Positions 2,587 to 62,151 of a stretch of DNA of 64,000 bases are shown here, piece by piece. Every line of letters starts with the position of its first letter. The stretch's first letter is position 1. The notes under the pieces were generated by a model, which was given only the letters and a program-made list of their open reading frames with translations, was not told the DNA's origin and did no database searches. The position numbers and the translations under genes were made by a program. Source of the DNA: an uncultured delta proteobacterium (GTDB lineage: Bacteria; Desulfobacterota; Binatia; Binatales; Binataceae); assembly GCA_963721485.1 (NCBI GenBank), contig CAVRJV010000013.1:169464-233463 (forward strand), read 5' to 3'.

Positions 2587-2705
2587 CGCCGCGTGTCCAC
2601 TAGCCTCAAGGATAGCGGCCGACTGTGGCGATTGCGACAACCCGCCTTCCCTTCGCAGGGAGAGGGGAAAAGGGACGCGCGCCAAAACGAGCGGCCTCAA
2701 AGTGC

Positions 2706-5288
2706 TCACTTCTCTTGCTTAAGGCGGGAGGCGAGGCGGGCGAGGGCGTTTAGGGCGTCCATCGGGGTCATGCGCTCGAGATCGAGTGCGCGCAGTTCGT
2801 CGACGATGCGTTCTTCGCGTGGAGAGAAGAGGCCGAGTTGGGGCGCGGGGGATTTTGGCACGGCGGTCGCGCGCGATTCGCGGCATCCCGGCCTCGTCGA
2901 GTTCGCCTTGTTCGAGGTTGGCCAGAATCTCTCGTGCGCGGGTGATGATCGAATCGGGCAATCCGGCCAGCCGCGCCACTTCGATTCCGTAGCTGCGCGA
3001 TGCCGGCTGCTCGATCACGCGGCGCAGAAAAATCACCTCGTCGCCCCATTCGCGCACCGCCATGCTGAGGTTCTTGACCCGCGGACGCTCGCGCGCGAGG
3101 TCGGTCAGCTCGTGGAAGTGCGTCGCGAACAGTACTTTGGCGCGGGTCTGATCGTGCAGGTACTCGGCGACGGCCCACGCGATCGCGAGGCCGTCGAAAG
3201 TGCTGGTGCCGCGGCCGACTTCGTCGAGCAGCAGCAGGCTGCGCTCCGACAGGCCCTTGAGCAGGCGCGCCGTCTCGCTCATCTCGACCATGAAGGTGGA
3301 TTCGCCGCGGCGAAGTTCGTCGCGCGCGCCGATTCGCGTCAGCACGCGATCGATTAGCCCGATCGTCGCCTCGGCGGCGGGAACGAAGCTGCCGATTTGC
3401 GCCATGATCGCAATCAGCGCGACCTGGCGGAGATAGGTCGACTTGCCGGCCATGTTGGGGCCGGTGATCAGCAGGATTTGGCGCGTGTCGGGCTCGGCGT
3501 CGAGGTCGTTGGGCACGAACTCGCCCGCGCGCATCCCGGCTTCGAGCACCGGATGGCGTCCGTCGCGCACGCGAATCCGCAGGCCGGTGTTGATCTTCGG
3601 GCGCACGTAGCCGCGATGCCGCGCGACTTTGGCCAGCGACATCACCGCGTCGAATTCGCCAACGGCGCGAGCGGTTTCGAGGATCATCGCGGCGTGCGAC
3701 TGCAGGTCGCGCAGCAGCTTGGTGAAGATCTGCAGCTCGAGTTCCTTGAGCGCCGATTCTGCTGTGAGGATCTTTGCGCTCGAGTTCCTTGAGCGCCGGC
3801 GTGGTGAAGCGCTCGGCGCTGACCAGCGTCTGCTTGCGCTCGTAGTCGGCCGGCACGCGCTCGAGATTGGGCTTGGTCACCTCGATGTAGTAGCCGAAGA
3901 TATTGTTGTAGCGGACCTTGAGCGATGGAATCGCGGTGCGCTCGCGCTCGGTCGCTTCCAGCTTCGCGATCACGCCGCGCGCGCCCGAGGCGAGGCCGCG
4001 CAGTTCATCGACCTCGGCACTCAGGCCCGCGCGAATAACGTTGCCGTCGCGCGGATTCACCGGCGGTTCGTCGGACAGCGTCGCCGCGATTTGCGCGACC
4101 AGCGCGGGCATCGGCGAGATTCGCGCGACCTGCTCGCGGATAAGCGGGCTCTTGAGCGCGCCCATCGCCTGTTTGAGTGAGTCGGCCGCCGCAGAGCGCG
4201 TCGCCGAGGCGCAGGCAATCGCGCGGCGACGCGCGCATCGCGCCGATTCGTCCCGCCAGCCGCTCGAGGTCGCCGATGCGCTTCAACGATTCCGCGCAGC
4301 GTGCCGCCCAGGTCGGCGTCGAAGAGCTCTTCGAGCGCGTCGTGCCGCGCGTGAATCGCGTCGAGCGCGAGCAGCGGATAGATGATCCAGTTGCAAGCGT
4401 GCGCGCGCCGACCGCAGTCAGCGTCTCATCGAGAATCGACAGCAGCGAGCCCCTTGCGCGCGCCGTCGGTCGAGGCAATCAGCTCGAGATGCCGCCGCGT
4501 GGTCTCATCCACCACCATGTACTCGGCGATTCGGTAGAGGCGCGGCGCCGCGATATGCGCGAGGTCGCGGCCGAAGGTTTCTTCGACGTAGAGCAGCGCG
4601 ATTCCCGCCGTGTGCGCGATCGATTCGCTCAACTCGGTCGCAGCGCTCGCGAACCGATTCGAGAACGCCGCAGTCGCTCGGTCGGCGCCGAAGCGATTCG
4701 TGATCGAGCATCGTCTGAGGACAGTTCAGATCCTTGAGCAGCGCGCTCAACTCACCGTCCCGCGCGGCGATTACGATTTCGCGCGGCGCGATGCGCGCGA
4801 TTTCCTCGCACAGCGTCGTAGCCTCGCGAACTCTGCGTCACGAGGAACTCGCCGGTCGATACGTCGAGCGCCGCAAGCGCGAAGCCTGTCGCTTCCGCGC
4901 CTGTAACCGCGACCAGGTAGCTCTTCTCCGCCGCCGTCAGCACCATCTCTTCGCCGACGGTGCCGGGCGTGATCACGCGGACGATTTGCCGCGGCATCAG
5001 TTTCGGAGTTTTAGGATCGGGCGTGCCTTGCTCGCAGATCGCGACCTTGTGGCCGGCCTTCAGCAGCTTGGCGATGTAAGGTTCCGCACAATGGTAGGGC
5101 ACGCCGCACAGCGGCACGCCGTCCTTGTTGCGCGAGGTGAGTTGGATATCAAGCACGCGCGCGCCGACTTCAGCGTCCTCGAAGAACATCTCGTAGAAAT
5201 CGCCGAGGCGGAAAAACAGGATCGCGTCGGGGACGCGCTGCTTGACGCTCAGGTACTGCGCGATGAGGGGTGTTTGCTTGACTGCCAC
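2706..5288 (-). CDS. mutS: DNA mismatch repair protein MutS, frame-interrupted (at least 5 frame changes)
   Basis: The N-terminus MAVKQTPLIAQYLSVKQRVPDAILFFRLGDFYEMFFEDA is in ORF 4752..5288. Middle domains are spread over ORFs 4505..4750, 4426..4632, 4005..4478 and 2768..4165. The ATPase domain (GPNMAGKST, DEVGRGTS, ATHFHEL) is in ORF 2719..3687. The C-terminus ..MTPMDALNALARLASRLKQEK* ends at 2706. Confidence 0.9.
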
Positions 5289-5763
5289 TGACGCGATTGC
5301 GCCTCACAATAGCCGTGGCGGACGAAATGGGCAAAACTGCATATGGGGCGCATCCGGGGCCGGCGCAATGACAAAAGGCGGCGCGTCCACTCTTCGCGCC
5401 CGATGTTAGAGCGATAATAGGTTGGTCTGCTAATGACGCGCGCGCCTTTTTCATCAACGGCACGAAATCAGTCTCGTCGAAGGCACCCGGAAGGCTTATG
5501 TCCTTGTCGCCTAAATGCACGCCTAGCTGGCTGGCATCCTTTTGGAGTTGCTCCATTAGCAGATCATAGAACCTGATCACGCAGTCTTCGTTTTCGACCA
5601 TCGCGCGACCCCACTCTGCGAACGCCACCGAGTGCTGACCACTCAGATATTCGAAAAGTTGAGACCATTGGTCGGCGGTCGCCTCTCTTGCAAATGGAGG
5701 TCTCCCGCTATATGCGGCTGCGAGTTGTTGATTCGTCAACTTCTCAATTCTGGACTTATCCAT
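5170..5763 (-). CDS. hypothetical small helical protein (cassette gene 4); 3' end uncertain
   Basis: ATG 5763 is preceded by GGAGG with a 7-nt spacer (MDKSRIEKLTNQQLAAAYSG..). The lower-GC coding signal fades near 5400. The frame stays open to 5170, inside mutS, which is probably not real. A terminator-like hairpin lies at 5380-5400. Confidence 0.5.
   Translation of the reverse strand: MDKSRIEKLTNQQLAAAYSGRPPFAREATADQWSQLFEYLSGQHSVAFAEWGRAMVENEDCVIRFYDLLMEQLQKDASQLGVHLGDKDISLPGAFDETDFVPLMKKARASLADQPIIALTSGAKSGRAAFCHCAGPGCAPYAVLPISSATAIVRRNRVSGSQANTPHRAVPERQAARPRRDPVFPPRRFLRDVLRGR
5366..5400 (-). terminator. possible intrinsic terminator after the cassette
   Basis: On the minus strand the sequence reads GGCGCG-AAGAGTGGA-CGCGCC followed by GCCTTTTGTCATT. 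The stem is short (6 bp, all GC). Confidence 0.3.
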
Positions 5764-5826
5764 CGAGATTCCTCCGCACAGATCGAATAGCTCATAACTG
5801 TACTGAGTCCCACCCAAGTTGACCGG

Positions 5827-6810
5827 CTATAAAGGATGCTCCTCGACTGGATTCTCCGTGGAGAAAACATGGAAACCACCGAGGTGCAGACCCAAGTTGA
5901 AACGCTGATCGAGGCCGAACTCTAAGTAGTCGCCAAAGTCCGCGGCGCTGGTCACTCGCGTCCCAAGGATTGTAGACTTGATGAAATCTAGAGTGCAGGG
6001 TGCACCTTCGACGTTCTTCACGCATGTTGGAGCGGCCAGCGGCGTCACGTTAAGCTCGATTCCCTGGCCGAACTCGGCGCGGCTTCCTGTGAAGCGGCAT
6101 ATAACCTCCTCCGAAAGTTCCATCATCGTCGTACCGTCCTCTGCTGCAACGAGGTTCTCAACCGCATGCCCGGCGAGGCAGGAGTACATCTCGCCGAAAG
6201 ACGACACCCAACCCTGCGGAAAAATGAAGTAACGCCCCTCTCGCGTCACTTCCTCGTGGCCCTCGAAATCCGAAACAAGCGAATAAATGAAATCGAAAAA
6301 AGCGGGTGCCGTGGCCAAATCGGCGAACTGAAGCCGCACTCGCGCGCGAACACCGATAAGGCTGCGCTCGAGCATGCGAAACACAGTGTCCGGCATAAAG
6401 GCTAACTGACGCCCCTTAAGCGGCGGAATCAATCCCATGTTATGCGACGTGGCCCAGGATTCGCAGCCGCCGCTAAAGCCCATAGGCGAAACCAACAGCC
6501 CGAGATAAAGAGTTCCCATCGAATACTTGTTCATTGTGCGCACAACGGCAGCCCACTCCTGCACATGCGCGGGCTCCGCGCGCCTTGACAGTTCCTTGCA
6601 ACTCACGAGCAGCGTCACTTTAGGGTCGCTGAGCAACTCCGCGACCAAAACATCCACCTCTTTTCTCGGCGGCCCCTTGAAGGCTGCGACCTCCGGAAAC
6701 AGAGCGCTCTCGACCTGCACGGTTTTATTATGCTGCACTTCGACGGACGGCCCCAGAATCTTTCGGGCAATCTCGAAGCAGCGTTGTTCGAGTTCATTCT
6801 TAAAGTTCAT
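5827..6810 (-). CDS. Mrr-like PD-(D/E)xK restriction-endonuclease-fold N-domain fused to an unknown C-terminal domain (cassette gene 3)
   Basis: This is an intact 327-aa ORF. The N-terminal ~130 aa follow the Mrr catalytic-domain pattern: FEIARKILG .. EVDVLVAE (D53) .. TLLVSCKE (S70-C-K72) .. GLLVSPMGFSGGCESWATSHNMGLI. Residues ~130-327 carry no motif I recognise. Its ATG overlaps the stop of the upstream gene (ATGA at 6807-6810). Confidence 0.7.
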   Translation of the reverse strand: MNFKNELEQRCFEIARKILGPSVEVQHNKTVQVESALFPEVAAFKGPPRKEVDVLVAELLSDPKVTLLVSCKELSRRAEPAHVQEWAAVVRTMNKYSMGTLYLGLLVSPMGFSGGCESWATSHNMGLIPPLKGRQLAFMPDTVFRMLERSLIGVRARVRLQFADLATAPAFFDFIYSLVSDFEGHEEVTREGRYFIFPQGWVSSFGEMYSCLAGHAVENLVAAEDGTTMMELSEEVICRFTGSRAEFGQGIELNVTPLAAPTCVKNVEGAPCTLDFIKSTILGTRVTSAADFGDYLEFGLDQRFNLGLHLGGFHVFSTENPVEEHPL

Positions 6811-7190
6811 CTGAACACCTTTTCACCCGAGGCCAACACCATCCCCGGTTCAAGCTTCTCGGCCCGAAGCTTCCTCAGGGTGTCGCCATCCCGAATTACG
6901 AAAACAGCGTCTGCGGTGACCGAAAATACTTTTGCTCCAATCTGCTTGCGAATCACCCGGACGGGAAATCGGGGGCGCGAAATCTGAATGACAGGATTCG
7001 CGATGAACTCCCCGCTGTCAGTCGGACTCATCTCGTAAATGTCTAGACCGCCGACGTAGATAACAACGCCAACATCGTCATCGACCAAAATCCGCCCGCC
7101 ATCGCGTCGGAGCCCATCGACCAGAACATCGACATCCACGGACTTCCCGCTGCTGTCGACCAGCGTCACCTGTTCCTTTGGGATCGCCAT
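6807..7190 (-). CDS. hypothetical small beta-rich protein (cassette gene 2)
   Basis: A 127-aa protein starts at ATG 7190 (MAIPKEQVTLVDSSGKSVDVDVLVDG..), 1 nt after the stop of gene 1. The computed ORF 6807..7349 extends upstream, but that part overlaps gene 1 and looks non-coding. No family was recognised. Confidence 0.6.
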   Translation of the reverse strand: MAIPKEQVTLVDSSGKSVDVDVLVDGLRRDGGRILVDDDVGVVIYVGGLDIYEMSPTDSGEFIANPVIQISRPRFPVRVIRKQIGAKVFSVTADAVFVIRDGDTLRKLRAEKLEPGMVLASGEKVFR

Positions 7191-7191
7191 A

Positions 7192-7530
7192 TCACTTTTT
7201 CCGGTTTGCGATTTTCCCGCGAACCTCCGCCAGGATTGACTCGCGTTGCTGCTCCGATAGCTGGCTTGGGTTTGGCTGAGAGCTACCCTGCACCGGCAGC
7301 AGCCTCGGATCCCCTTTCTCGTCTCCGCCGATGACGTAACCGGGATCACCCTCGATAACCATCATCCGAATCCGCGATTCGCACCTAGGACAAATCACGT
7401 ACTCATCCTCGAAAGGAGGCATAATCGTGACAACGCCACCACAGTTGCAATTGAGCGGAAACGGCTTCGCACCCTCCAGAGCAGCGCCGGCCACAAAGGT
7501 ATACAAATCAAATTCCATTTTCTTAGGCAT
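7192..7530 (-). CDS. hypothetical zinc-ribbon-like protein with basic C-terminal tail (cassette gene 1)
   Basis: This is an intact 112-aa ORF. It has four Cys arranged as C28-x-C30 .. C47-x-x-C50 (LNCNCGG .. ICPRCES). These are followed by a polar low-complexity stretch and the tail ILAEVRGKIANRKK. Confidence 0.6.
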   Translation of the reverse strand: MPKKMEFDLYTFVAGAALEGAKPFPLNCNCGGVVTIMPPFEDEYVICPRCESRIRMMVIEGDPGYVIGGDEKGDPRLLPVQGSSQPNPSQLSEQQRESILAEVRGKIANRKK

Positions 7531-7908
7531 GGGCGATCTCTCAGACCCGGAATCAATATAGTGCTTCAGCGCCCATTCTACCTCGATTCACCAGGCCGCG
7601 CGCCGCCTCTTCGGGCTTGCACCGACCTCCAGAGACCCCGCCGTCATCTCAAACCGCAGCCCCGGCCACCGCTCGCGCATCCGCAAGAGCGCGATCCAAG
7701 TCGACCAATCCTCGCTGATGAAACTGAAGGCCACGACCGGCTCAGTCCCGTTCGGTCTTCGCGCCGCTGCCCATCGACGAGGGGCGCAAATAGTAAGCGC
7801 CGCACGCCCACTTTTCGCTTTGCCGAATACATCTCGATTTACTATGGTGCGGGTGTTAAGCAGGCACTAACGTCACAGCGACACATCACCGACAGGAGAT
7901 TAGGAAAA

Positions 7909-9427
7909 ATGGCATCAGCATCAGCTTCATTGGAGTCCGCCACTCGCGGCGCCAAGTCGAGCGCAGCACTTGAGTTCCTCAAGAGCTCGCCCAAAAAACT
8001 TCTCATCAACGGCAAATGGGTGCCGTCGAAGTCCGGCAAAACTTTCGAGACCCTCAACCCGTCCAACGAGCAGGTGCTCGCGCTCGTCGCCGAGGGCGAC
8101 AAGGCCGACGTGGATGAGGCCGTCAAGCATGCGCGCAAGGCCTACGAGGAAGGCAAGTGGGCGAGCTTGAGCCCGCACGCGCGCACGCACTTCCTGCTGA
8201 AGATCGCGGAGCTAATCGATCAAGCATGCCGAGGAGCTGGCCGAGCTCGAGACGCTCGACAACGGCAAGCCGCTGTTCGAGTCGAAGAATATCGACATCC
8301 CCGGCGCGGCCGAGACTTTCCGCTACTACGCGGGCTTCGCGACCAAGATTTACGGCGAGACCAACCCGTCCGACCCCTCGATGTTCAACTACACGCTGCG
8401 CGAGCCGGTTGGCGTATGCGGACAGATCATCCCGTGGAACTTCCCGCTGCTGATGGCGGCGTGGAAGATTGCGCCCGCGCTCGCATGCGGCAACGTCGTC
8501 ATCCTGAAGCCCGCCGAGCAGACTCCGCTGACCGCGATTCGCCTCGGCGAGCTTATCTGCGAGGCGGGCCTGCCCGAGGGCGTCGTGCAAATTATCACGG
8601 GCTTCGGCCCCGGCGCCGGCAGCTCGATCGCCGAGCATCCCGACATCGACAAGGTCGCGTTCACCGGTTCGACTGAGGTCGGCAAGATTGATCCTGCAAG
8701 GCGTCGACCGGCAACCTGAAGCGCGTCTCGCTCGAACTCGGCGGCAAGTCGCCGAACATCATTTTCCCCGACGCTGACATGCCGTCGGCGGTGTTCGGCT
8801 CCGCGCTGGGCATCTTCATGAACCAGGGCCAGGTCTGCTGCGCCGGCTCGCGCGTGTTCGTGCAGGAGAGGGTGTACGACCAGTTCACCGATCGACTGTC
8901 GAAGATTGCCAAGCGGACTGACGCTCGGCAATCCGCTGGATCCCGACACCCGCATGGGCCCGCTCGTTTCCAAGGAGCAGCACGATCGCGTCAAGGGATA
9001 TCTGAAGACCGGCAAGGCGGAAGGCGCGACCGCCAAGACCGGCGGCGAGCCGGGCAAGCAGGAATCCGGCTACTTCATTCAGCCGACGGTTTTCACCGGC
9101 GTGAACAATCAGATGAAGATCGCGCGCGAGGAAATCTTTGGGCCGGTCGCCTCGGCGATCAAGTTCAAGGACGAGGCCGACGTCGTCCTCCAGGGCAACG
9201 ACACGACCTACGGCCTGGCGGCCGCCGTGTGGACCAAGGACATCAACCGCGCCCTCGGCGTCGCGCGCAAGCTGAAGGCGGGCACGGTCTGGATCAACAC
9301 CTACGGCCAGATCGATCCGATGTCTCCGTTCGGCGGCTACAAGCAGTCGGGCTTCGGCCGCGAGCTGGGCAAGTACGCGATCGATCTGTACACGCAGATC
9401 AAGTCGGTTTACGCGAAGATCGGATAG
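7909..9427 (+). CDS. NAD(P)-dependent aldehyde dehydrogenase, frame-interrupted (3 frame changes: ~8222, ~8690, ~8905)
   Basis: The start is ATG 7909, with AGGAGA upstream. The motifs [33 protein letters not shown] (catalytic Cys) and EEIFGPV are spread over four frames. The last segment ends ..[12 protein letters not shown] at 9427. Confidence 0.9.
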
Positions 9428-9450
9428 TCGAGGAAAATTCTGAATCCGCA

Positions 9451-9488
9451 GGAGAGGGCGTCCGTGCAACCGGGCGCCCCTCTTTTTC
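9451..9488 (+). terminator. intrinsic terminator downstream of the aldehyde dehydrogenase
   Basis: GAGAGGGCG - 12-nt loop - GCGCCCCTC followed by TTTTT. Confidence 0.55.
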
Positions 9489-9731
9489 ACCCGTTATATC
9501 CGCAAAGGTAAAAAAATCACAATTTTGAGGGGCAAAGATGTTTCACTTGACCCATCGGATTCCTTATTATTTGGGGCAGTGAGCCAGTGGTTGGCGTCGA
9601 GCCGAGTCGAAGCAGTTCCGGGCCGGCGCACGTCTTAGGGCGTGAGGATGAGCCGTCGCGAGAGGACGGCATTAAGTTGGGTGGTGTGACATCGGCGTCG
9701 TCCGGATTCGGCGGCGCGGCGGGGTTCACTG

Positions 9732-10549
9732 ATGGCGGTCGAGAAGAACGACGATCCGATCGAGGCGATGATCTCGTCGCGACGCGCCTCGCCGCGCGCC
9801 ATCGAGGCAGCGTCCCCAGTTCCCCTCGAATCCGGTTCCGACGACCGACTACCGAAGCTCTACGCCGCTCGAGCCGAAGAGAACGTCTCGAGCGTTCCCC
9901 CGAAAAAGCCGAAGCCCGAACCGCGCGCGCCTCAATTCTCCGCCGCTGCGTCCGCCGACGAATGTCCGCCGCTCGAAGGCGGCTCGAAGTTCGTCCGATC
10001 GGAACGCCGATGGGTCTGCGCGAGCTCGCCGCGCTGCACAAGCGCACCTGGAAGATGCTGAACGTGCAGGAAAAGCGCGTGCACATACTGCTGTGGCCGC
10101 TCGCGATTCATTTCGGCCTCTACACTGTCGGGCAGGGCAGCGAACGGCGCCGGCCGCCGCTGATTGGCGCGTTCTGGGCGCGATGCCTGGCGGACGCGCC
10201 GCTGACGCTCGGCCATCTGTATCCGGCGCAGTTGTTCAAGGGGATGCTCGCGTCGGAAGTATTCGAGTTCGGCGGGATGGTGATCGACCCGACTTACCAG
10301 GGCAAGGGGCTGGTCAAGATGATGTCGGACACGGCGCGGCTATTCGTCTTTTCGCGGCGTCCCAAGCTGCTGATCACGAATCCGGTCGAGCCGCTTTACG
10401 AGATGTACAAACAGCTCGGGCTCAAGACGGTCGGCCGCGAGGCGGTCGAGCATCCGCACGCATTCAACGTGACGCGTGTGGCTGATGTACGGCAGGTTCG
10501 ACGAGATGTCGAAGCCGTACTTCATGTAGGGTTTTACGGTTTGAGATAG
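9732..10549 (+). CDS. hypothetical protein with GNAT-like acyltransferase C-terminal half, frame-interrupted
   Basis: ORF 9732..10061 gives a low-complexity N-terminus. The continuation in ORF 9587..10549 reads ..FEFGGMVIDPTYQGKGLVKMMSDTARLFVF..LYEMYKQLGLKTVG, which resembles the acetyl-CoA-binding region of GNAT folds. An alternative C-terminus (..VWLMYGRFDEMSKPYFM*) lies in another frame. The assignment is weak. Confidence 0.4.
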
Positions 10550-11406
10550 GGCGTCATATCCATGCCGGGGTAGCGCGCCGCCACATCCGCGATAGTCTGA
10601 TCGTTCCAGTATTCGCTGCCCGGCGGCGGCCAGCCGAACAGGTCGCGCTCGCGCGGCGTCATGCGAACGATTGTCTCGCGCATGCCTTGGGCGCATCCGC
10701 GCGATCCGGCCAGCTCATCTTTCCCTGCCAGCGCCATCCGCGCTGCTGAATATCGACGAGCATCATGAAGCGCGAGCGGTTGACGCCGGTGAAATCGGAG
10801 CCGCGATGAAAAACGTCAGTCTTGTAGATCAGCAGGCTGCCCGCGGGAGCCGTAGCCGCGACCTCGTGCTCGAACAGATCGCCGAAAGGCACCGCGCGCG
10901 TCGAGAGCGGCAGATCGCGCGGTGAACTTCAACGGCACCAGCTTGGTGGGCGCATCTTCGGCGGTCACATCGGAGAGCAGCATGAAGGTCGTCATCTGCG
11001 TGTGATTCCGATCGGCGCGCGGCACCACCAGGCTGTGATTTCCAAAGTCGCGATGATGAAACTGATCGTAGTTGACGGCGCCCGAGTACTTCGCCCACAG
11101 CTCGATTTTGTAAATTTCCAGGTCCTGAGTTCCGAGCAGCCGCTCGGCGCCGTCAATCAGGTCGGGATACACCGGGAGGCGATTCAGCGCCCACGAGATG
11201 TAGGGGAACAAGCGCAAGCCGCGCGAATTGCCCGCGGCGAGTTCCGGATGTTCCTCGGGCGCCGTGAAATAATCCTCGGGCTTCGGGATAGATTTCCCAC
11301 AGCGCTTCCTGAGCCGCCGCCAGCGTCTCGCGCATCGAGGAAGTTCTCGACGATGGTGAAGCCCGCGATCCCAAACCTCGGCGAGATTTCTATCCGGTAC
11401 GCGCAT
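10534..11406 (-). CDS. phytanoyl-CoA dioxygenase (PhyH)-family Fe(II)/2-oxoglutarate oxygenase, frame-interrupted
   Basis: The segments GFTIVENFLDAR / ETLAAAQEALWEIYP / KPEDYF..YDQFHHRDFGNH..TTFMLLSDVT / GSLLIYKTDVFHRGSDF / MTPRERDLFGWPPPGSEYW read consecutively across ORFs 10816..11406, 11153..11374, 10659..10892 and 10534..10737. Confidence 0.65.
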
Positions 11407-12317
11407 TCAGATCCCTCAAGCGCTCGATCGGCCTAGGACTTCGTTTTGTGCTCCGGCCTTGGCGCCGCCCGCCCATGAACGTCGCCGCACCCTGCATGAC
11501 CCGAGTGCCGACGCTCAGCAGCGCGTCGGTGACGCCGGGGAACAGCGACGCGAGTTTTTCCGCGACCGCGGCGCCGGGAGGAACATCCACTTCCGTCAGC
11601 CCGAACGCGGCCGCTGCCAGCACCGCCCACGTCACCCATCGCGCCGGCATCGCCATCATCGCGGAGACGCCTTTGAGCGTGTCGTGCTTGAGCGCATTGC
11701 GCGCCATCGGCGTGTCGATCACCCCGGGCATCACGAGCGACACTTTTATTCCGGTGTTGAACAGCTCGACGCGCAGCGCTTCCGTCATGCCGACCAGCGC
11801 GAACTTGGTCGAGCTGTAGCCGCCGAGCGGGCTGACGCCGCGGCGTCCGGCCAGCGACGAGATATTCACGATATTGCCCGACTTGGCTTTGCGCATCACA
11901 GGCAGCACCGCCTGCATCGCGTTGAGCGCGCCGAAGACGTTCACCGCCATCATCTTTTCGAGATCTTCGGGGCGCATCTGCTCGACCGTCTCTGCGATCA
12001 GCAGTCCCGCCGAGTTGATCAGGATATCGACTTTGCCGAAGGCTTCCTTGACCTGCTCGATCGCCCAGAACACGCGCGCGCGATCGGTCACGTCGCAATC
12101 GAGCGCGAGCGCCTTGCCGCCGGCCTTGTTGATTTTCGTGCGCGAGCTCTTCGAGCTGCACGCGTCGGCGTGCGAGAAGCGCGACCTGCGCGCCTTGTTC
12201 GCCGAACGCCAGCGCAACGTCGTGGCCGATACCGCTCGACGCGCCGGTCACGACCACCGATTTGTCGAAGAAGTATCCGCGCACCGGTCCTTTGGATTCC
12301 CGCTTGGCTTCGCTCAT
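11390..12317 (-). CDS. short-chain dehydrogenase/reductase (SDR), frame-interrupted; exact stop uncertain (11390 or 11433)
   Basis: The start is ATG 12317. The motifs are VVVTGASSGIG (Rossmann), NSAG, and S..Y..SK (LGGYSSTKFAL). The N-terminal part is in ORF 11433..12380 and the rest in ORF 11390..12217. Confidence 0.8.
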
Positions 12318-12473
12318 TGGCGTCACCTCGATTGGGCGCCGTGGCACGGAACTGATGGTGTGGGCGTCGCGTTTCGGCATTGTGCGCCGGTCGCCCGCGC
12401 ATCCGCAAACCCCCGCGGAAGCGGTTGCCCATGAGACACGGGGTGATTAGCCTTCTGCCGGAGCAGGGAAATT

Positions 12474-13094
12474 GTGAGATCGAGAACTGTCATTACCGAG
12501 ATCGCCGCCGCCGGCGCGCTGATCGGCTCGTATCCGCTGGATTGGCTGGTCAGGCGCGGCGAGCCGTACTTCTGCGCGCCGTCGAGCGAACCGGTAATTC
12601 TCATTCACGGCTTCGGCGGCAGCCGATCCAATCTGCTGGCGCTGGCGGCGTATCTGCGGCTGGCGGGATTCGACAACGTGTCATATTTCGAGTACCCGCG
12701 ATGGCAGACGCTGGGCGATTCCGCCGCGCAACTCGGGCGCCTCGGCCGAGGAAAAATCCGGCGGCAGACGGCGTTCATCTTATCGGCCACAGCCTGGGCG
12801 GCACCGTCGCGCGGCGCTACGCGGCCGGCGCGTCGAAACGCGCGGTGCGCTCGCTCGTCACGCTCGGCTCGCCGTATTCGTACGGCCAATGGAGTCCGCG
12901 CGAGCTCGGGATTTTCGGCGACGACGATCCGATAGTGCCCGCGCCGATCGAGGCGCTGATGACTCGCGTCGCGTTCGGGCGGATCGTGACGCTGCACGAC
13001 GTTGGGCATCTTGCGCTGGTTTTTCATCCCGAGGCGCTGCGAATCATCGGCACCGAGCTGCGCGCAAATCGCGCAATCGAGCGGCCGCGCGTAA
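12474..13094 (+). CDS. alpha/beta-fold hydrolase (lipase/PGAP1-like), frame-interrupted
   Basis: ILIHGFGGS is in ORF 12474..12935. The nucleophile elbow HLIGHSLGG and ..LHDVGHLALVFHPEAL are in the frame of ORF 12380..13444. The stop is proposed at TAA 13092-13094 after one further frame change. Confidence 0.6.
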
Positions 13095-13125
13095 GCGCTG
13101 GCGCGCGCAGCGCTACACTCGTCGC

Positions 13126-13789
13126 GTGTCATCGCGAAAGAAGCGGGCGCGATCGTGCTGGTCGGCGGGCAAAGCTCGCGGATGGGCCAGCCCAAGGCAG
13201 CGCTCGATTTCGGCGGCGTGCCGCTGCTCACGAGGATCGTCATCGAGCTGAAATGGTGGTTCGACGAGATTGTGATCGTCGCGGCGCCAGAGTCGGCGGA
13301 CAGCCTCGCATCGAAATTCCCGGATTGACGATCGTTCCACGACGAGACAGCGTTCGCCGGGCCGCTCGACGCGTTGCGGCGCGGCCTCGAATGCGCTCGA
13401 TCACGAAGTCGCGTTCGCCTGCTCGTGCGATCTGCCGCTGTTGAATTCCGACGTTGCGGCGAGATCTGGTCGCGATGCTCGATGACTTCGACGCGGTGAT
13501 TCCGGAAGTCGGCGGCAAGCTGCAGCCGCTGCACGCGGTCTATCGCAAGCATTGCGCAAATGCGATCGAGTCGCTCGCGGCGAGCGGCGAGAAGCGGCTA
13601 ACCGCCAGCGCTGGCCGCGATCAACGCGCGAAGGGTCGATCGAGCAGCGAGCTCAGAAAGATCGATCCGCAGCTCAACAGCTTCTTCAACGTGAACACGC
13701 CCGAGGACTATCGGCGCGCACTCAAGCTGCGGGGCCTGCGTGATCCTGACAGAGCCGAGGAGTGCGGGAAACTAACCCCGAACCCCTAA
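13126..13789 (+). CDS. mobA: molybdenum cofactor guanylyltransferase MobA-like, frame-interrupted
   Basis: Reading from GTG 13126 and adding one A to the A-run at 13137-13139 gives MSSRKEAGAIVLVGGQSSRMGQPKAAL. Later segments are FAGPLDAL, ACDLPLL and LQPLHAVY. The end ..NVNTPEDYRRALKL.. is in ORF 13454..13789. Confidence 0.7.
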
Positions 13790-13827
13790 CCCCTTCCCGA
13801 GAGGAAAGGGGAACCGGAGAGGAAGGC

Positions 13828-15349
13828 TTACGGCTTCTTCTCCCAGCGCAGGATCGGGCGGCGCGCGGCCTGCGCTTCGTCGACGCGCGAGACGGCAATG
13901 TCTGCGGCGCGTTCTTGACCCGCTCGGGATCGTTCAGCGCCTCGTCGTAAATCCGCTCCATCGCGTCGACGAAGTTGTCGAGGGTTTCTTTGCTCTCGGT
14001 CTCGGTCGGCTCGATCATCAGCGCGCCCGGCACCACCAGCGGGAAATAGATCGTCGGCGGATGGATTCCGAAGTCGAGCAGGCGCTTGGCGATATCGAGC
14101 GTGCTCACGTCGGCGCGCTTTTCGAGATCGTGCGACAGCACGCATTCATGCATCGAGGGCTCGCCGGTCGCGCTGGGAAAATGCGGTTGCAGCCGCTTGC
14201 GCACGTAGTTGGCGCCGAGGATCGCGAGCCGGCTCGCCATCCCGAGGCCGTCGCCGCCGAGCGCGAGGATATACGCGTAGGCGCGCACGAGCATCCCGAA
14301 GTTGTTGTGAAACGATCGCAGCCGCCCGATCGAATCGGGCCGCTCGGCGTCGAATTCGTAGCCGGCCTCGGCATGCTTCAAGCGCGGCATCGGCAGGAAC
14401 GGCTCGAGATGCTTTTTCACCGCGACCGGACCCGCGCCCGGACCGCCGCCGCCGTGCGGAGTCGAGAAGGTCTTGTGCAGATTGAGCTGCACGATATCCG
14501 CGCCCATGTGGCCCGGCTTGGCGACGCCGAGCAGCGCGTTCATGTTGGCGCCGTCGAGGTAGAGCAGCGCGCCGCGCTCATGCAGCGCCGCCGCGATCTC
14601 CTGGATCTCGCGGCTCGAAAATTCCCAGCGTGTTCGGATTGGTGACCATCATCGCGGCGACGTCGTCGCTCACCAGCCGGCGAACCTCGGCCGCTTCCAG
14701 ATAGCCGCGCCGATTCGACTTCGCGACCATCACCTCGAAGCCCGCCAGCGTGCAGCTCGCCGGATTGGTGCCATGCGCGGTGTCGGGAATGATCACCTTG
14801 TGCCGCGCTTCGCCGCGCTTGCGATGGTACGCGCGGACCATCAGCAGGCCCGTCAGCTCGCCTTGCGCGCCGGCCGCGGGATGCAGCGACACCGCGTCCA
14901 TGCCGGTGATTTCGGCGAGCGCCGCTTCCATCCGCGCGATCAGTTCGAGCGCGCCCTGCGCCAGATGCGCCGGCGTCGCCGGATGCAGTGCCGGCAAGAC
15001 CCGGCAGCGCCGCCAGCTCGTCGTTGACCACCGGATTGTACTTCATCGTGCACGAGCCGAGCGGATAGAACTGGAGCGCCTGCGCGAAGTTGAGCTGCGA
15101 CAGGCGCAGGAAATGACGCAGCACCTGCGGCTCGCTGAGCTCGGGAAAGCCGGGGAGGTCCTCGCGGCAGAGTTCGGCGCCGAGCAGTTCAGCGCCGCGC
15201 CGATCGCCGGCGGCGCGCGGCGACAGATCGGTGCCGCGGCGGCCTTCGGATGAAAGCTCGAAAATCAGCGGCACGCCTGCCACCGGCTCGGTTCGATCGA
15301 GCGTCGAAGGAGTCTCAGGCCACCGCGACGCGGACGATTCTGCCCGCAC
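13828..15349 (-). CDS. gcvPB: glycine dehydrogenase (aminomethyl-transferring) subunit 2, frame-interrupted
   Basis: The fragments carry LSQLNFAQALQFYPLGSCTMKYNP, GMDAVSLHPAAGAQGE, IIPDTAHGTNPAS and NLHKTFSTPHGGGGPG (PLP lysine). The C-terminus ..VSRVDEAQAARRPILRWEKKP* ends at 13828. Confidence 0.9.
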
Positions 15350-41111: not shown

Positions 41112-43697
41112 GAGAATCACGTTCGCGGTGATATGGGCCGCGATGCTCGTGCCTGCTATCGCACGCGCCGATGCTCCCGCTTCGACTGGCGCTCCCGCTA
41201 CCAAGCCTGCGAAAGCGAAAGGGTTTGCAGTGCCTCCGGCAGTTCGCGCCGAGCATGGCGGCTCCCGTTAACATAACCGGCCAGGAAACGATCTACGATT
41301 CCAAGACCGACACCTTCGTCGTCAAAGGCGACGCTGTCATGACCCAGGGCGGCAGCGTGCTGAAGGCCGACGAAATCGACATCAATGCGCCGCGACCGCC
41401 AGGCGACGGCGATCGGCCATGTCCATCTGATCGATCCGGAAGTCGAAATGTGGGCGACCAAGGCGACGATCAACGTCACCAACGAGACGATGGTGCTCTA
41501 CAACGCCAAGGTGTTAGCAAAGCAGGACATTTATCATCTTGAAGGCCAGGAGATCATAAAGCAGGAGGGGCCCAACTACGTTGTCAAGAAGGGCTTCTTC
41601 ACGACTTGCGGATGCGAGAAGGGCACGCCCTCTGGTCGATAAACGCGGACCAGATGACGGTGAACATGGGCCATACGGGCCATGCCACCAACGGCACCTT
41701 CAACGTGGCGGGCTACCCTGTGATTCCGTTCCCGTACCTGGTCTTCCCGGCAGATACCGACCGGCACAGCGGCGTGCTGAGCGGGCGCTATGGCGAATCG
41801 GGACTGCGCGGCTTTCAATGGCTGCAGCCGTACTATATCGCGATCAACAAGAGCTCCGACGCGACGGTCGCGCTCGATATCGAGACCTCGCAGCGAGTCG
41901 GTGGGCTGGCCGAATATCGGTTGGTCAATGGCAAAGACGATTATTTCTGGGTGGACGGTGCGTTCTACAACGAGTCGATCCGGTCGGACCAGCAATCGCC
42001 TCAACGACACCGTTGACTACCAGATCGCCGATCCGCACATCCCGCTCGATCGCTACGGGATAATCGGGATGACCCGGCAACATCTCACGCCCGATCTGAT
42101 CGCGTACGCCGACGGGGTTTCGGTCAGCGACAGCCTGTACCTGCGCGAGATGGATGTGTGGACGTTGTCGCGCGGTTTCCAGAGCGGCAATTGGGGTTCG
42201 ATGCGAAATGCTGCGTCGGATTTCGGGTTGCTCGACCAGTTCGAAAACGCATATGTGAATGTCAAAGGAAGCTGGAATCAGGATCTGATTCAACCGCAGC
42301 AATTCGCGTTGCAGCGGCTGCCCGATGCGACGGTGACCGGACGCCAGGAATTGTTCAACAACCTGATGTACGCGGATTACGACGCGGAGGCGGTCAACTT
42401 TTACCGGTACGAAGGCATCGACGGCCTCCGGCTGGACGCGAATCCGCGCGTTACGCTGCCATTTCGTTGGGGTGACTACCTTCAGGGGTATGGTCAAATC
42501 GGATCGCAGGCGGCGTTCTATGACGCCAACGGACATAATCTACAGGTCATTCCGGTCGGAACCTCGCCTGCGCCCGAATCGGTCAAACCCTCGCACAACA
42601 CTTGCGCCAGCGGCGGTGGTCAGCAACTCATCTGGAACAATTGTGTGGTGCTGAGCGCACTTTCATCCGATGGCGACAGCGCACGACTCATCCCGTACGC
42701 AAAAGCCGGAATCTCGACGACTCTCGATCGTGTTTACGACGTCGACTGGAAGACGGTCGATAAGCTCAAAAATATCATTCAACCGTTCGCGAGCTATTAC
42801 TACGTGCCGAATATCTACCAGGGCAACATGCCTCTGTTCGACTCATTCGACCGCCTGAACTCGCGCAGTCTCGTCACCTACGGTGTCACCACCAGGCTGT
42901 TCGCCAAAACCAGAGATTTGCCGCCGGAGGAGCCGACCACCGACGACGCGACTCCGACCGAGGGGTTGTCCGATGCCGAGGCGGCGACGGGGGCGTTCAG
43001 CGAAGAGCCAATCGGGGATGCGGCCATACCACATGCCGGAAACATCGTCCGCAACGGCGAGCATTCCTCGGAGGTTGGTTCATTGACGGTACAGCAGTCG
43101 TACGACATCGGGCACATAGTGGCCAACAATTCGGACATGTCGGACATCCAGGCGCTGCTGCACCTCTATTTGAGCCAGCTTATGACGTTCAGCTCGGAGG
43201 TCGATTACAGCCCGCGAAATCATGCCGGAGTCTCGCTCGCGGACGCGTCGATAAGTTACCAGCCGCCCTGGTCGACGCCTGGGTCGAAAATTTACATGGG
43301 CAAGGCGCTGCAAGGCTCGTTCATACAGTTGGGATACAACTATGCCAATCGGAGGGACACGGTAATTCGGGGTACGAACAAGAATGCCGCCGAGTTCGTT
43401 TCGGGCACCGCGTACACAGAGGTGTTCGACAGGCTGGGCCTGTACTTTGCGCCCTCATACGACATCGCGTCGAATCAAATGCTGTCGACCGAATACGGCG
43501 TGCGACTCAAATCGCCGTGCGATTGCTGGGCGGCGGACGTTGGCGTTACCGATTCGTACAATCCCAACGAAACGCAAATCCAGTTCCAGTTAACGCTCGG
43601 TGGTCTAGGTTCGGTCGGGCAGCGGCCATTTGGGCGCAATCCGTTCCAGCAAGCAGGCACGGTTGGCTCCTCGACCGGAGTTCTGCCGACCTACTGA
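41083..43697 (+). CDS. lptD: LPS-assembly outer-membrane protein LptD, frame-interrupted in the first ~900 nt
   Basis: The signal peptide is MGCFLKSALKRITFAVIWAAMLVPAIARA (TTG start). The OstA-like N-domain (ITGQETIYDSKTDTFVVKGDAVMTQGGSVLKADEIDI; VKKGFFTTCGCE) lies in several frames. The long beta-barrel part is intact in ORF 41790..43697. Confidence 0.8.
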
Positions 43698-43717
43698 GAG
43701 CCGCGCGAACAGCGCTC

Positions 43718-44629
43718 CTAGAAGTACAGCAGCGCGATATCGGTAAGAATCCACAGCGCGACCGCAATCATCAGAGGCCGATCCCGGATTAGCGCGCGGG
43801 CCGGGTCGCCGCCTTCGTTGCGTTCGTCGATCAGGTACAGGTAGCGCAGGACTCCGAAGGCGACGAACGGTACCGTCAGGTAGAGATGGCGGGTGCCGAG
43901 CTTCGCTTCGACCTCGGCCGACGCCGTGTAAATCATGTAGCTGACGAGCGTCGCGCCGGCGACGATCGAAATCATCTGGTCGACCAGTCGCACGCTGTAC
44001 TGCGAGAGCGCGCTGCGATGAGCGATAGCGTCGTCGCCCAGTGCAATCAACTCGTGGCGCCGTCGCGCAAGTACCAGGAATAGCGCCAGTACGAACGTGA
44101 TGAACACCAGCCACGGCGATACCTCGACGTTGATCGCGACGCCGCCGGCGAATGCACGCAGCACGAAGCCGATCGCAACCGCGATCACGTCGATGATCAC
44201 CTGGTGCTTGGCCCACATCGAATAGACGAGCTGAAGGACAGCGTACACGACCGCGATGCCCAGGAACGCGCGGCCCAATATCATGCTCAGTACGACGGCG
44301 ATCGCCGCCAGCACCAGCGCGGCCCGGCCTGCCGCGGCGACGGTAATATCGCCACGCGCCAGCGGGCGGTCGCATTTTTCCGGATTCAGCTTATCGGCAT
44401 CGCGGTCGGCGATGTCGTTCAGAATGTAACCGGCGCTCGATAGTGCGCAGAACGCGACGAAAGCCAATGCCGCGAGCAAGTCGTCGTGGAAAACGAACAG
44501 CCGCTGGCCGAATACCAGCGGCGCCAGTACCAGCGCATTCTTGATCCACTGATGGGGCCGCGCGAGGCGGAATATCGCCGCCAACTGGCCGGTGCTCGGG
44601 CTGTCGTTCAACCTGGTCGCCGCGTTCAC
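43718..44629 (-). CDS. UbiA-family prenyltransferase, decaprenyl-phosphate phosphoribosyltransferase-like
   Basis: The sequence ARPHQWIKNALVLAPL, ILNDIADRDADKLNPEKCDRPLARG (NDxxDxxxD) and the C-terminal ..YLYLIDERNEGGDP.. are typical of DPPR-synthase-like enzymes. The start is set at GTG 44629. The ORF is open to 44854 but that part overlaps the neighbouring gene. Confidence 0.7.
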   Translation of the reverse strand: MNAATRLNDSPSTGQLAAIFRLARPHQWIKNALVLAPLVFGQRLFVFHDDLLAALAFVAFCALSSAGYILNDIADRDADKLNPEKCDRPLARGDITVAAAGRAALVLAAIAVVLSMILGRAFLGIAVVYAVLQLVYSMWAKHQVIIDVIAVAIGFVLRAFAGGVAINVEVSPWLVFITFVLALFLVLARRRHELIALGDDAIAHRSALSQYSVRLVDQMISIVAGATLVSYMIYTASAEVEAKLGTRHLYLTVPFVAFGVLRYLYLIDERNEGGDPARALIRDRPLMIAVALWILTDIALLYF

Positions 44630-48099: not shown

Positions 48100-48683
48100 C
48101 TAAGGCTGATCCGGCAACCAGATAACCGTCGTGTCCCTGCGCGGCTCGCTCCAGACCGCGACCGAATGATTCTCCGACTCGAGCCGCGAGATGTCTGCGT
48201 GCGAATCGTTATCCGCCATCGTCGGTTCATTGGCAGTTGCCTGGGCCACCTGATTTGCCGCCGGCGCGGCTTCGTGCTCTGCTTGGCGAATGCAGTGGTC
48301 TGGTTGCGTACCCCGATTGGCGAACTCCCGGGCATACGGCGTCATAAGAATTATCGTCATGACGGCGACCGCCGCGACTGCTCCACCCCACGCGAAGCCG
48401 GCGCCACGGAATCTACCTGCCGCCTGAAGAAGCGCGCGATTCGCGTCGACACGGGCTGCGGCAGGCGATCGACGCGAGCGATCACCGCGCTCGAGAAACC
48501 GGCTAGAGATGGTTCGACGGCGATCGATCTGAGGTCTCGTCCGAGCGTCGAGTAATCGGCAAGGATGCCGGTGCAGGATTCGCATCGCGCCAGATGGAAC
48601 GCGACTTCCTGCATCTCGTTCGGTTCGAGTTCGGAGTCCTCGAACGCGCCGAGCATCATGCTTATTTCACCGCATTCAGCCAT
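48100..48683 (-). CDS. anti-sigma factor (zf-HC2 type, single TM), one frame change near 48420
   Basis: The N-terminal H..C..C motif (VAFHLARCESC) is in ORF 48357..48683. The TM helix FAWGGAVAAVAVMTIILM and the periplasmic tail are in ORF 48100..48585. Confidence 0.7.
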
Positions 48684-48689
48684 ATTCGA

Positions 48690-49316
48690 TCAGCTCCCGG
48701 CCACGTCCTTCAAAATGGTGCGCAGGTGCGTTCGGGCATAGTGCAACCTGCTCATGACCGTCCCTCTTGGGCACTGCAAAACGTCGCTAATTTCGTCGTA
48801 CGACATCCCTTCGACTTCGCGTAGAAGTATCACTGCACGATGTTCCGGCGTCAACTCCTCCAGCGCTTGCTTTAGTCGCGCCGAGAGTTCACTGCGGCTG
48901 ACTTCCTTGAACGAGTCGCCTGTGGTGGTCGGCAATTTGCTGATTTCAGTTTCCGCATCTTCGCCGTGCAGGACCACGTGGCGTCCCTCGCGGCGCCAGA
49001 AGTCGATCGCGAGGTTGGCCGCGATTCGATAGAGCCAGGTCGAGAAGCTGGATCGCGATTCAAACTTCGACAGGTTTTCGTAGGCGCGGACAAAAGTTTC
49101 TTGCGCCAGTTCAATCGCATCATCCTGATTGTGCACCACCGCCATCGCGACGCCGACCACGCGACGCTGGTATCGCTCCACCAAAACGCCGAATGCCGCC
49201 GAATCGCCCTTGCGCGAGCGTTCGATAAGTTCGGCTTCATCACCGTCCTGGCGGCCTGGTGTTCTCAACTTGAGTAGACGCAGGGGCGGGCGACTAAATT
49301 CAGCGAGGTTATTCAT
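48690..49316 (-). CDS. ECF (group 4) RNA polymerase sigma factor
   Basis: The protein starts MNNLAEF.. It has region 2 (FGVLVERYQRRVVGVAMAVV..DAIELAQETFVRAY, STWLYRIAANLAIDFWR) and region 4 (LTPEHRAVILLREVEGMSYDEISDVLQCPRGTVMSRLHYAR). The computed ORF 48690..49484 is fused in frame to the polA tail only because of a polA frame error. Confidence 0.85.
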   Translation of the reverse strand: MNNLAEFSRPPLRLLKLRTPGRQDGDEAELIERSRKGDSAAFGVLVERYQRRVVGVAMAVVHNQDDAIELAQETFVRAYENLSKFESRSSFSTWLYRIAANLAIDFWRREGRHVVLHGEDAETEISKLPTTTGDSFKEVSRSELSARLKQALEELTPEHRAVILLREVEGMSYDEISDVLQCPRGTVMSRLHYARTHLRTILKDVAGS

Positions 49317-51914: not shown

Positions 51915-52093
51915 AGGTCGAAACTATCCGATACAGTTCTCAAAGCAAAAGCGGCGCGGAAGCAAATCGAAAATTTATCTGACGCGAGATCATCGTATTG
52001 ACAGTGACGCGTGGCGTGTTTAATTAGACGGTTGCCTTGTGATTGATCGAATTGCCGTGCGGGTCGCTTCGTCAATTGATTTGGACGACTTGA

Positions 52094-52861
<768 letters not shown>

Positions 52862-61853: not shown

Positions 61854-61861
61854 TGCTTTGA

Positions 61862-61882
61862 ATCTAAACTATTACTTTAGAT
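61862..61882. promoter_or_regulatory. perfect palindrome ATCTAAA-N7-TTTAGAT just upstream of the aminotransferase start
   Basis: The 7-bp arms are exact. The site lies 9-29 nt upstream of ATG 61853 (minus strand), inside a ~300-nt AT-rich spacer. Its function is unknown. Confidence 0.35.
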
Positions 61883-62006
61883 ATGGAAAATTGCGCGCAC
61901 GATTCTCCGGCGGCGACAAGCATGTGGGCGACGGTGGAATCGTGGTCCTTATACCATCGGTTGTGGTGCTGAGACGACCAGACCACCAAGGGTCGTTTCG
62001 TTCCGT

Positions 62007-62060
62007 AAAAAATGTGTTCAAGAAAAGACCGGCGGCGTCCGACTTGAGACGACGCCGGTG
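62007..62060 (-). terminator. intrinsic terminator downstream of the ABM gene
   Basis: On the minus strand the sequence reads ACCGGCGTCGTC-TCAAGTCG-GACGCCGCCGGT (one mismatch) followed by CTTTTCTTGAACACATTTTTTA. Confidence 0.5.
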
Positions 62061-62151
62061 TTTGATGATGAAAGTCCATGCCTTACACGTAGCACAGAAA
62101 TTCTGTCGTAGTCAGGCTGAAAAGTTCATCCCCGCTGTCGCGGGGGCGAAA

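Follow-up and report, generated by a model that had tools for sequence, protein, structure and literature searches.

What is the compact gene cassette that lies between mutS and an aldehyde dehydrogenase gene (aldh) in a Binatia genome, and what might it do? The question is posed by a 64,000-nucleotide (nt) stretch of DNA from an uncultured delta proteobacterium of the family Binataceae (assembly GCA_963721485.1, contig CAVRJV010000013.1, positions 169,464–233,463), referred to here as the window. An initial annotation, made from the sequence alone, had described four tightly packed open reading frames (ORFs) there, designated here g1 to g4, as a horizontally acquired four-gene operon and a candidate defence or conflict system. 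All four ORFs lie on the minus strand where the annotation had placed them (Table 1), and the junctions are those it had described: the g1 stop TGA is separated from the g2 ATG by 1 nt (AAA-AAG-TGA-T-ATG), g2 and g3 overlap in ATGA, and a GGAGG is located 7 nt ahead of the g4 ATG. Of the proposed cassette, g1, g2 and g3 form the conserved unit, whereas g4 has no homologue and its frame crosses the edge of the inserted DNA. The three genes match no named system and constitute a credible candidate for a new defence module. We read them as a self-contained mobile nuclease module whose likeliest role, at a probability of roughly 0.55, would be defence or conflict against invading DNA (phages, plasmids, and integrative and conjugative elements, ICEs), exerted through an effector resembling Type IV restriction enzymes.

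Table 1. Features of the mutS–aldh region, in window coordinates
Feature	Coordinates	Strand	Description
Inserted island	5314..7785	-	2,472 nt in the divergent mutS–aldh intergenic region; GC ~0.56 vs 0.63
g4, orphan ORF	5314..5763	-	ATG at 5763, own GGAGG; outside the conserved unit
g3, 327 aa	5827..6810	-	Predicted Mrr-type PD-(D/E)xK nuclease, helical linker and C-terminal beta-sandwich
g2, 127 aa	6807..7190	-	Predicted stand-alone Hint (intein-like) fold without catalytic residues
g1, 112 aa	7192..7530	-	Zinc ribbon; invariant C28-N-C30 ... C47-x-x-C50
Leader, presumed promoter region of g1–g3	7531..7608	-	TAGAAT- and TATATT-like hexamers, without consensus match
Gene remnant, 48 codons	7609..7752	-	From the gene preceding g1 in contig L116; truncated at the island edge

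Conservation and spread of the three-gene unit

The order g1-g2-g3 and its tight junctions are kept in all 24 of the 24 genome loci with enough upstream sequence, even where g3 identity is only 38–42%; same-order co-occurrence in unrelated genomes, which the initial annotation had proposed as a check, is thus borne out for these three genes. Specifically, g1 lies directly upstream of g2 in every locus examined, overlapping it by 1 nt in L001 (Paraburkholderia acidipaludis) and standing 1 nt away from it in L002, L031 and the window. A programmed frameshift fusing g1 to g2 was considered and ruled out, as the relative frame of the two genes varies among loci. Only the three ORFs are conserved: across 26 loci, no conserved non-coding elements, terminal repeats or att sites were found around them, and no neighbouring gene is constant from locus to locus. 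Ratios of nonsynonymous to synonymous substitution (dN/dS) against the nearest relative amount to 0.12 for g1, 0.17 for g2 and 0.12 for g3, and all three genes are therefore under purifying selection.

In a scan of one genome per species, g3 is present in 25 of 185,579 species genomes. Its carriers, bacterial metagenome-assembled genomes (MAGs) and isolates from many phyla, comprise Alpha-, Beta- and Deltaproteobacteria, Acidobacteriaceae, Binatia, Syntrophorhabdaceae, Spirochaetaceae, Limisphaerales and Bacteroidetes, together with one MAG labelled Bathyarchaeota; Paraburkholderia acidipaludis NBRC 101816 and Comamonas aquatica are cultured and make direct testing possible. A profile search of 1.84 billion representatives shows the g3 family to be small and closed: it yields 78 proteins, mostly fragments, with about eight full-length clusters at 50% identity. 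The family is absent from the 72,556 PLSDB plasmids and from GenBank phages, and among 2.9 million IMG/VR contigs a single match lies at a contig end with uninformative neighbours. The G+C content (GC) of the unit averages 4.6 points below that of its flanks, and lies 19 points below in L001 and L027. The MAG labelled Bathyarchaeota (L028, 9277-10979) holds a complete unit in which g3 is matched as two overlapping pieces owing to a frame shift; this archaeal copy could be a product of mis-binning or of bacterium-to-archaeon transfer.

The predicted nuclease and its two partner proteins

The g3 protein comprises a nuclease region (residues ~1–135; E13, D53, S70-x-K72), a linker carrying an invariant DFEGH motif at residues 181–185, and a beta-sandwich (~195–327). 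The DFEGH loop is modelled at low confidence and may be a contact surface. Its homologues number 276, of which the 120 listed are 60–84% identical, nearly all 325–328 amino acids (aa) long and all annotated as hypothetical. The catalytic signature of Mrr_cat nucleases consists of an acidic residue in helix 1, an Asp in strand 2 and an (E/Q)xK motif in strand 3. In the g3 alignment, D53 and K72 never vary and E13 is kept in at least 90%, while the secondary structure of the model (helix 6–19, strands 55–61 and 64–71) fits this signature. Mrr_cat (PF04471) is matched weakly by 15 of 18 family members (best E 5.8e-4), and the divergent members P0372, P0368 and P0384 reach 22.6–23.5 bits, above the Pfam gathering score of 21 bits. 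The AlphaFold2 model, with a mean predicted local distance difference test score (pLDDT) of 72, combines an alpha/beta N-terminal domain, long helices and a C-terminal beta-sandwich at pLDDT 83–95. Foldseek matches in the PDB include a nuclease group of MspJI, XisH, Cap4 and EcoO109I, and a search of the BFVD viral models likewise returns a phage restriction endonuclease. The N-terminal domain can thus be solidly predicted, from profile and alignment, to adopt an Mrr-type nuclease fold, in agreement with the restriction-endonuclease-fold effector proposed in the initial annotation.

A second Foldseek group, formed by NEMF, Rqc2, FbpA and RqcH (NFACT-N) together with MutM/Fpg, matches the sandwich at probability 0.9–1.0, and the BFVD search adds a Megaviridae NFACT protein with a root-mean-square deviation (rmsd) of 3.8 Å over 119 columns. 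NFACT-N and the N-domain of Fpg/MutM/Nei are the best structural match of residues ~195–327 in two libraries, each of which reaches probability 1.00, and the predicted structure makes an NFACT-N/Fpg-like C-terminal domain probable. NFACT-N and Fpg use this fold to grip nucleic acid: the former takes hold of tRNA during ribosome quality control, the latter of damaged bases that have flipped out. Unlike these proteins, the g3 domain shows no sequence-level similarity to them: when the 18 family members were compared with Pfam at E ≤10, only Mrr_cat, RRG7 and DUF6138 were matched, and no NFACT-N/Fpg profile. It further differs from Fpg in being internal, so that an N-terminal Pro nucleophile is unusable, and in having no H2TH or zinc-finger part. 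A literature search found no description of an NFACT-N/Fpg domain fused to a nuclease.

Type IV Mrr/MspJI enzymes offer a close comparison in several respects. Like them, g3 joins an Mrr_cat PD-(D/E)xK nuclease to a separate putative reader domain, has no cognate methyltransferase, and occurs in defence islands and mobile elements; MspJI itself stands among its top structural matches. No methyltransferase family is matched by any of the three genes in Pfam, and the operon is also without an ATPase or helicase. The differences are as follows: the domain order of g3 is reversed, with the nuclease N-terminal; its putative reader is NFACT-N/Fpg-like and not a winged helix, SRA, PUA or EVE domain; Ser occupies the second catalytic position; and two small co-conserved partner genes are always present.

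The first of these partners, g2, has 356 homologues, nearly all of the 120 listed being exactly 127 aa long, with a mean column identity of 81% in a 20-sequence sample. Its AlphaFold2 model (pLDDT 83) was compared with the PDB by Foldseek, and the top 19 matches are all inteins (probability 0.85–1.00, best E 9.3e-4). The sole sequence hint is a weak NCBIfam match to residues 968–1052 of archaeal PolII DP2, a protein that carries an intein in some archaea. By eye, the N-terminal 'VTLVDSSGKSVDVDVLV' and the C-terminal 'SVTADAVFVIRDG...AEKLEPGMVL' resemble intein blocks A and B. Intein splicing requires a Cys or Ser at position 1, a TxxH motif in block B, and a terminal His-Asn followed by Cys, Ser or Thr. 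The g2 sequence contains neither Cys nor His, ends in ...GEKVFR without a terminal His-Asn, lacks a Cys, Ser or Thr as nucleophile in position 1, and reads T92-A-D94-A95 (TADA) in its block-B-like stretch, where the histidine of TxxH is missing. Because the splicing residues are missing, g2 cannot splice or self-cleave by known chemistry. It shares the predicted Hint fold with inteins but differs from them as a free-standing 127-aa protein that is not inserted in a host protein. It is not an intein; judged on its model, g2 would be a catalytically dead Hint domain, most likely serving as a binding module.

A split intein, with g2 as the N-part and the first 28 residues of g3 (with the invariant H27-N28) as the C-part, was also considered. 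It was rejected because g2 alone spans most of the Hint fold, because no nucleophile follows the His-Asn pair, and because g3 residues 6–27 make up the opening helix and strand in the model of the nuclease. Several 127-aa g2 homologues (e.g. P0183, P0187, P0211) are named 'cytochrome P450' by JGI; the name is hard to reconcile with a length of 127 aa, the lack of Cys and the Hint-fold model, and is probably a propagated mis-annotation.

The second partner, g1, follows its zinc ribbon with a conserved Gly/Pro-rich stretch and a short conserved C-terminal tail in the alignment. Among its 223 homologues, the 120 listed are 62–87% identical and mostly 111–118 aa long, and the protein matches no family. 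The three small proteins had been left unassigned at the outset; g2 is now modelled as a Hint/intein fold, g1 is recognised as a four-Cys zinc ribbon, and g4 falls outside the unit.

Genomic contexts and candidate functions

Beyond the window, the unit is cargo of ICEs or islands in L001, L031, L025, L013 and Comamonas. In Paraburkholderia acidipaludis (L001), its neighbours encode ParB_N, DUF932, DUF736, RPA and ParA proteins, a TraF-like peptidase and a DUF3363 protein, a member of a relaxase family, within a conjugative element. The conjugative element of L030 places a coupling protein, a relaxase, the single-strand binding protein SSB, ParB_N and DUF3768 near the unit; L031 carries TrbI, TrwC and a coupling protein, followed by an E2/ThiF/JAB gene; and L025 and the Acidobacteriaceae loci have in common ParB_N, a coupling protein or TrwC. 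In Comamonas aquatica, the unit occupies an integrative island and adjoins the integrase.

Defence genes surround the unit at other loci. In L018 (3590-15249), an Ssp phosphorothioate defence locus encloses it, with sspH immediately on one side and sspC on the other, and it is either a hitch-hiker in the Ssp system or functionally connected to it. It directly follows a DrmMI/type IIG-like methylase in L019 and lies near an Avs4-like protein in L013, while in L002 a HipA-like kinase precedes it and a DUF499/DUF1156/SNF2 set, ThiF/multi-ubiquitin genes and QueC-like genes lie alongside. In 16 further loci, 148 neighbouring ORFs gave PADLOC matches that include SoFic, AbiEii, MADS, AriA, PDC-S04, HEC-01A, SspC/G, DpdE and MzaC, and Pfam matches that include IS66, integrases, HipA_C, Fic and type IV secretion system (T4SS) families.

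Several neighbouring gene sets are of interest in their own right. In L030, an AAA_21/AAA_15 ATPase followed by a UvrD-type helicase (3137-6399) is Gabija-like by domain content, and a set of ResIII, methyltransferase and AIPR genes lies on the opposite side from this pair. In Comamonas aquatica (L119:1082-4771, also L120 and L121), three same-strand genes of 310, 349 and 520 aa without a Pfam match end 17 nt ahead of g1 in the integrase-bounded island, and may represent another uncharacterised system. In two unrelated contexts (L002:7393-9231 and L014:4151-5989), a same-strand gene for a 612-638-aa HipA_C protein ends 47 nt before g1, and may form with the three genes a four-gene variant of the system.

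The defence interpretation is drawn from the co-occurrence of the three genes in 24/24 loci and from their frequent placement in defence islands and mobile elements, and the case for a defence or conflict function is circumstantial. In the proposed mechanism, g3 would be the effector, an Mrr-type PD-(D/E)xK endonuclease linked by helices to an NFACT-N/Fpg-N-type sandwich that probably reads a base carrying a modification or damage, or else an unusual structure in DNA or RNA. Following Type IV logic, g3 would cut nucleic acid once its C-terminal domain had recognised a foreign or damaged feature. The products of g1 and g2, translationally coupled to g3, would most likely bind it as obligatory regulatory or targeting subunits and keep the nuclease off until a trigger arrives. 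We infer complex formation, the C-terminal reader role, the trigger and the defence phenotype alike. A fully specified immune module, in which a dead Hint protein and a zinc ribbon gate the nuclease while the NFACT-N/Fpg-like domain reads damage or modification on a base, or else a tRNA-like structure, is a tentative proposal that we hold at well below even odds.

Several observations weigh against this interpretation. PADLOC-DB v2.0.0 (2023; 5,027 models), searched at E ≤1, returns 0 families for g1, g2, g3 and g4. This accords with the statement of the initial annotation that no named system could be recognised, and because no PADLOC model matches, the defence label derives from neighbourhood alone. 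The recurrent placement beside defence genes or as mobile cargo is itself a qualitative reading, and the surroundings are ordinary and metabolic in L003, L008, L029 and the window. Conservation of the three genes, at 60–70% identity across phyla and with fixed lengths, is unusually high for defence genes. At the protein level, the window copy of g3 scores 12.4 bits against Mrr_cat (E 0.18), and its membership is obtained by transitivity and not directly, since divergent relatives exceed 21 bits and the window copy lies below. The second catalytic position of g3 is an invariant Ser (S70-C71-K72) and not the usual Glu or Gln. The NFACT-N/Fpg matches reflect weak similarity (E 1.6e-3 to 6e-2, TM score on target ≤0.48), and the Foldseek output gives no aligned residues for them. 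Finally, g2 superposes on inteins with an rmsd of 8–15 Å and has no Pfam Hint sequence match.

Other searches bear on novelty. NCBIfam and PHROGs gave nothing meaningful for the three proteins, and neither did sequence-profile searches of the PDB with g1, g2 and g3, and none of the three matches a PDB sequence. A literature search by accession and description found no paper describing the gene set; since PADLOC-DB dates from 2023, a later naming is possible. In its general build, the unit is like small candidate systems such as the PADLOC PDC entries and the three-hypothetical-protein hotspot systems, with which it shares a compact operon, overlapping genes, island or ICE cargo status, patchy phylogenetic spread and a GC below that of the host; it differs from them in being far more conserved, with g3 at 60–70% identity across phyla.

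The same contexts could be explained by a tripartite addiction module of toxin-antitoxin (TA) type, in which g3 would be the toxin and g2 and/or g1 would neutralise it and autoregulate, stabilising the ICE or island with any effect on phages being secondary. The translational coupling of small proteins upstream of a nuclease, the carriage by ICEs and integrative islands, and the presence of HipA, AbiEii and Fic among the neighbours all suit this idea, as does the fact that inactivation strikes g3 specifically. In L020 (10900-12629), g3 is split by an IS3-type element, in L022 (10804-12115) it is interrupted by an ISL3 transposase element, and in L029 (9283-10477) it is truncated after residue 159 while g2 is frame-shifted; we read such disruption by insertion sequences and decay as expected for a costly, dispensable gene set, which also counts in favour of the defence interpretation. 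A plain toxin, however, would find the additional reader-like domain of g3 superfluous, no DNA-binding antitoxin fold can be recognised in either small protein, and the window copy stands alone in a chromosome with nothing to stabilise. We consider an addiction role unlikely, though a serious competitor, and the overlap between TA and abortive-infection defence makes it only partly distinct from the defence interpretation.

A role in ICE establishment or anti-defence is considerably less probable. Here the three genes would help incoming ICE DNA to survive, for instance through cleavage of host DNA or of defence transcripts, or through processing of the single-stranded DNA that is transferred. 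ParB_N, SSB and DUF3768 typically mark the leading or maintenance regions of conjugative elements; the unit adjoins large ParB_N proteins in L001, L025 and L030, and in L030 SSB and DUF3768 are also near. Such leading regions are reported to be rich in anti-defence genes (PMC11541004). Nevertheless, only ~5 of ~22 distinct loci are clearly conjugative, L001 and L030 disagree in how the unit is oriented towards SSB and ParB_N, many copies stand by themselves or in defence islands of the chromosome, and there are none on the PLSDB plasmids.

Returning to defence, protection against phages or plasmids, if true, would make the unit a compact 1.7-kb system with two parts new to immunity, giving a free-standing inactivated Hint domain its first defence role and a glycosylase/NFACT fold its first role as the sensor of a restriction-like nuclease. 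Its reader could respond to a feature of DNA or RNA beyond those recognised by current Type IV enzymes, which would be of practical interest for detecting modified bases. As a rare family found in many phyla at such identity, the unit would also provide a clean case for the spread of small modules through ICEs and defence islands.

The inserted island and its flanks

The island that carries the window copy is horizontally acquired DNA inserted among housekeeping genes, as the initial annotation had proposed, and this is strongly supported by empty-site relatives, deviant composition and other inserts at the same site. Computed GC confirms the low values that had been counted by hand: positions 5289-7560 have a GC of 0.554, the lowest of any 2.27-kb stretch within the 64 kb and ~3.9 standard deviations (sd) below the remaining non-overlapping stretches (mean 0.632, sd 0.020). 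GC at third codon positions is 0.62–0.67 in g1–g3 versus 0.77 at the mutS start.

Metagenome contigs were scanned with the aldehyde dehydrogenase N-terminus, and 22 of the 80 returned contigs also carry the mutS start. In most of these 22, mutS and aldh are divergent and spaced by only 140–270 nt, and none of them contains the three genes. The closest empty-site contig, L036, is 96% identical to the MutS N-terminus and 97% to the aldehyde dehydrogenase N-terminus, and its homology with the window is limited to 4001-5313 and 7786-9093. Since it stops at 5313 and resumes at 7786, the extent of 5289-7560 first assigned to the cassette must be replaced by the 2,472 nt of 5314-7785. Unrelated inserts occupy the same spacer in the relatives L038, L039 and L040, and the mutS–aldh spacer is therefore an insertion hotspot in the lineage. 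The insert of L038 (309-1932) spans 1.6 kb with a 495-aa ORF; that of L039 (144-1957) spans 1.8 kb with a regulator that is PadR-like by eye and a 391-aa ORF; and that of L040 (5229-5863) spans 0.63 kb with a 150-aa ORF, SnoaL-like by eye.

These empty sites also bear on a housekeeping function. The adjacency to mutS in the window and the Fpg-like fold predicted for the g3 C-terminal domain are the only points in favour of a DNA-repair accessory linked to mutS. Close relatives have an intact mutS beside aldh without the three genes, no other locus of the unit adjoins mutS, and a rare, patchy distribution over so few species genomes is at odds with housekeeping. A repair accessory is thus scarcely credible, and a functional link to mutS is effectively refuted by the empty-site contigs.

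The outer parts of the island reveal how it is built. Contigs L116-L118, the nearest to carry the three genes, share 78–81% nucleotide homology with the island, beginning up to ~245 nt upstream of g1 (L116) and ending at the g3 stop codon. Upstream, a tblastn search with the 124-aa protein preceding the unit in L116 matched its residues 69–116 to positions 7752-7609 (58% identity, E 4e-15). Downstream, the g4 frame meets no stop codon within the island and reads past 5313/5314 into the mutS leader and 5' coding region, to 5170. No g4 homologue was found in ~30 loci of the unit, in plasmids or in IMG/VR contigs, and its exact sequence is absent from the protein collection. Given this lack of homologues, a frame that crosses the island edge, and an L116-L118 homology that ends at the g3 stop, g4 is placed outside the unit as a passenger, probably truncated, and is not counted as its fourth gene. 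The island itself is a ragged piece of donor DNA whose two ends carry truncated genes, with g4 and the 48-codon remnant as passengers. Within the window, no flanking repeats, terminal repeats or att sites were found around the island, and no tRNA was found.

Such ragged ends point to illegitimate recombination rather than homing, and bear on a further proposal, that of a selfish nuclease element derived from an intein or homing-endonuclease gene and spreading by cleaving target sites and inserting itself there, without benefit to the host. A Hint fold paired with an endonuclease is reminiscent of intein architecture, and the insertion into an intergenic hotspot without a recombinase would suit such an element. 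Against this stand insertion sites without common flanks or target sequence in heterogeneous contexts, a separate g2 without any splicing residue, a varying g1/g2 frame that permits no fused product, and the ragged ends themselves; the proposal is very improbable. Under the defence interpretation, the window copy would have arrived on a 2.47-kb donor fragment dropped into the mutS–aldh hotspot.

Between the remnant and g1, the leader presumably contains the promoter of the unit. A sigma-70 consensus scan of 5100-8100 gave no site, and the leader shows no conservation among loci.

A separately assembled contig, L034 (2,673 nt, run ERR10755947), spans 5308-7983, is identical to the window over 5308-7863 and ends near both island edges. 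The island may be variable within the population, an arrangement that would fit these contig ends.

The initial annotation had also contrasted broken flanking frames with an intact cassette, and this description is accurate. Specifically, mutS is split over at least six frame segments and aldh over at least three, while related contigs carry both orthologues intact. Among 12 mapped breaks in the two genes, 11 are single-base insertions in the window relative to two related contigs, mostly outside homopolymers, and just outside the island the window carries extra bases missing from L034; assembly error is therefore likelier than pseudogenisation. At a flank rate of ~1 break per 400–450 nt, ~6 would be expected in the 2,472-nt island and 0 are seen, but the break-free state of the island should not be taken as evidence of selection on the cassette. 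A gene at 13.8–15.1 kb is likewise split into several frames, the broken flanks extending over 2700-5313 and 7786-15150. Other 1-kb stretches with a GC below 0.58, milder in their deviation than the island, lie at 42250-43750, 48500-49500, 51250-52250 and 61750-62750.

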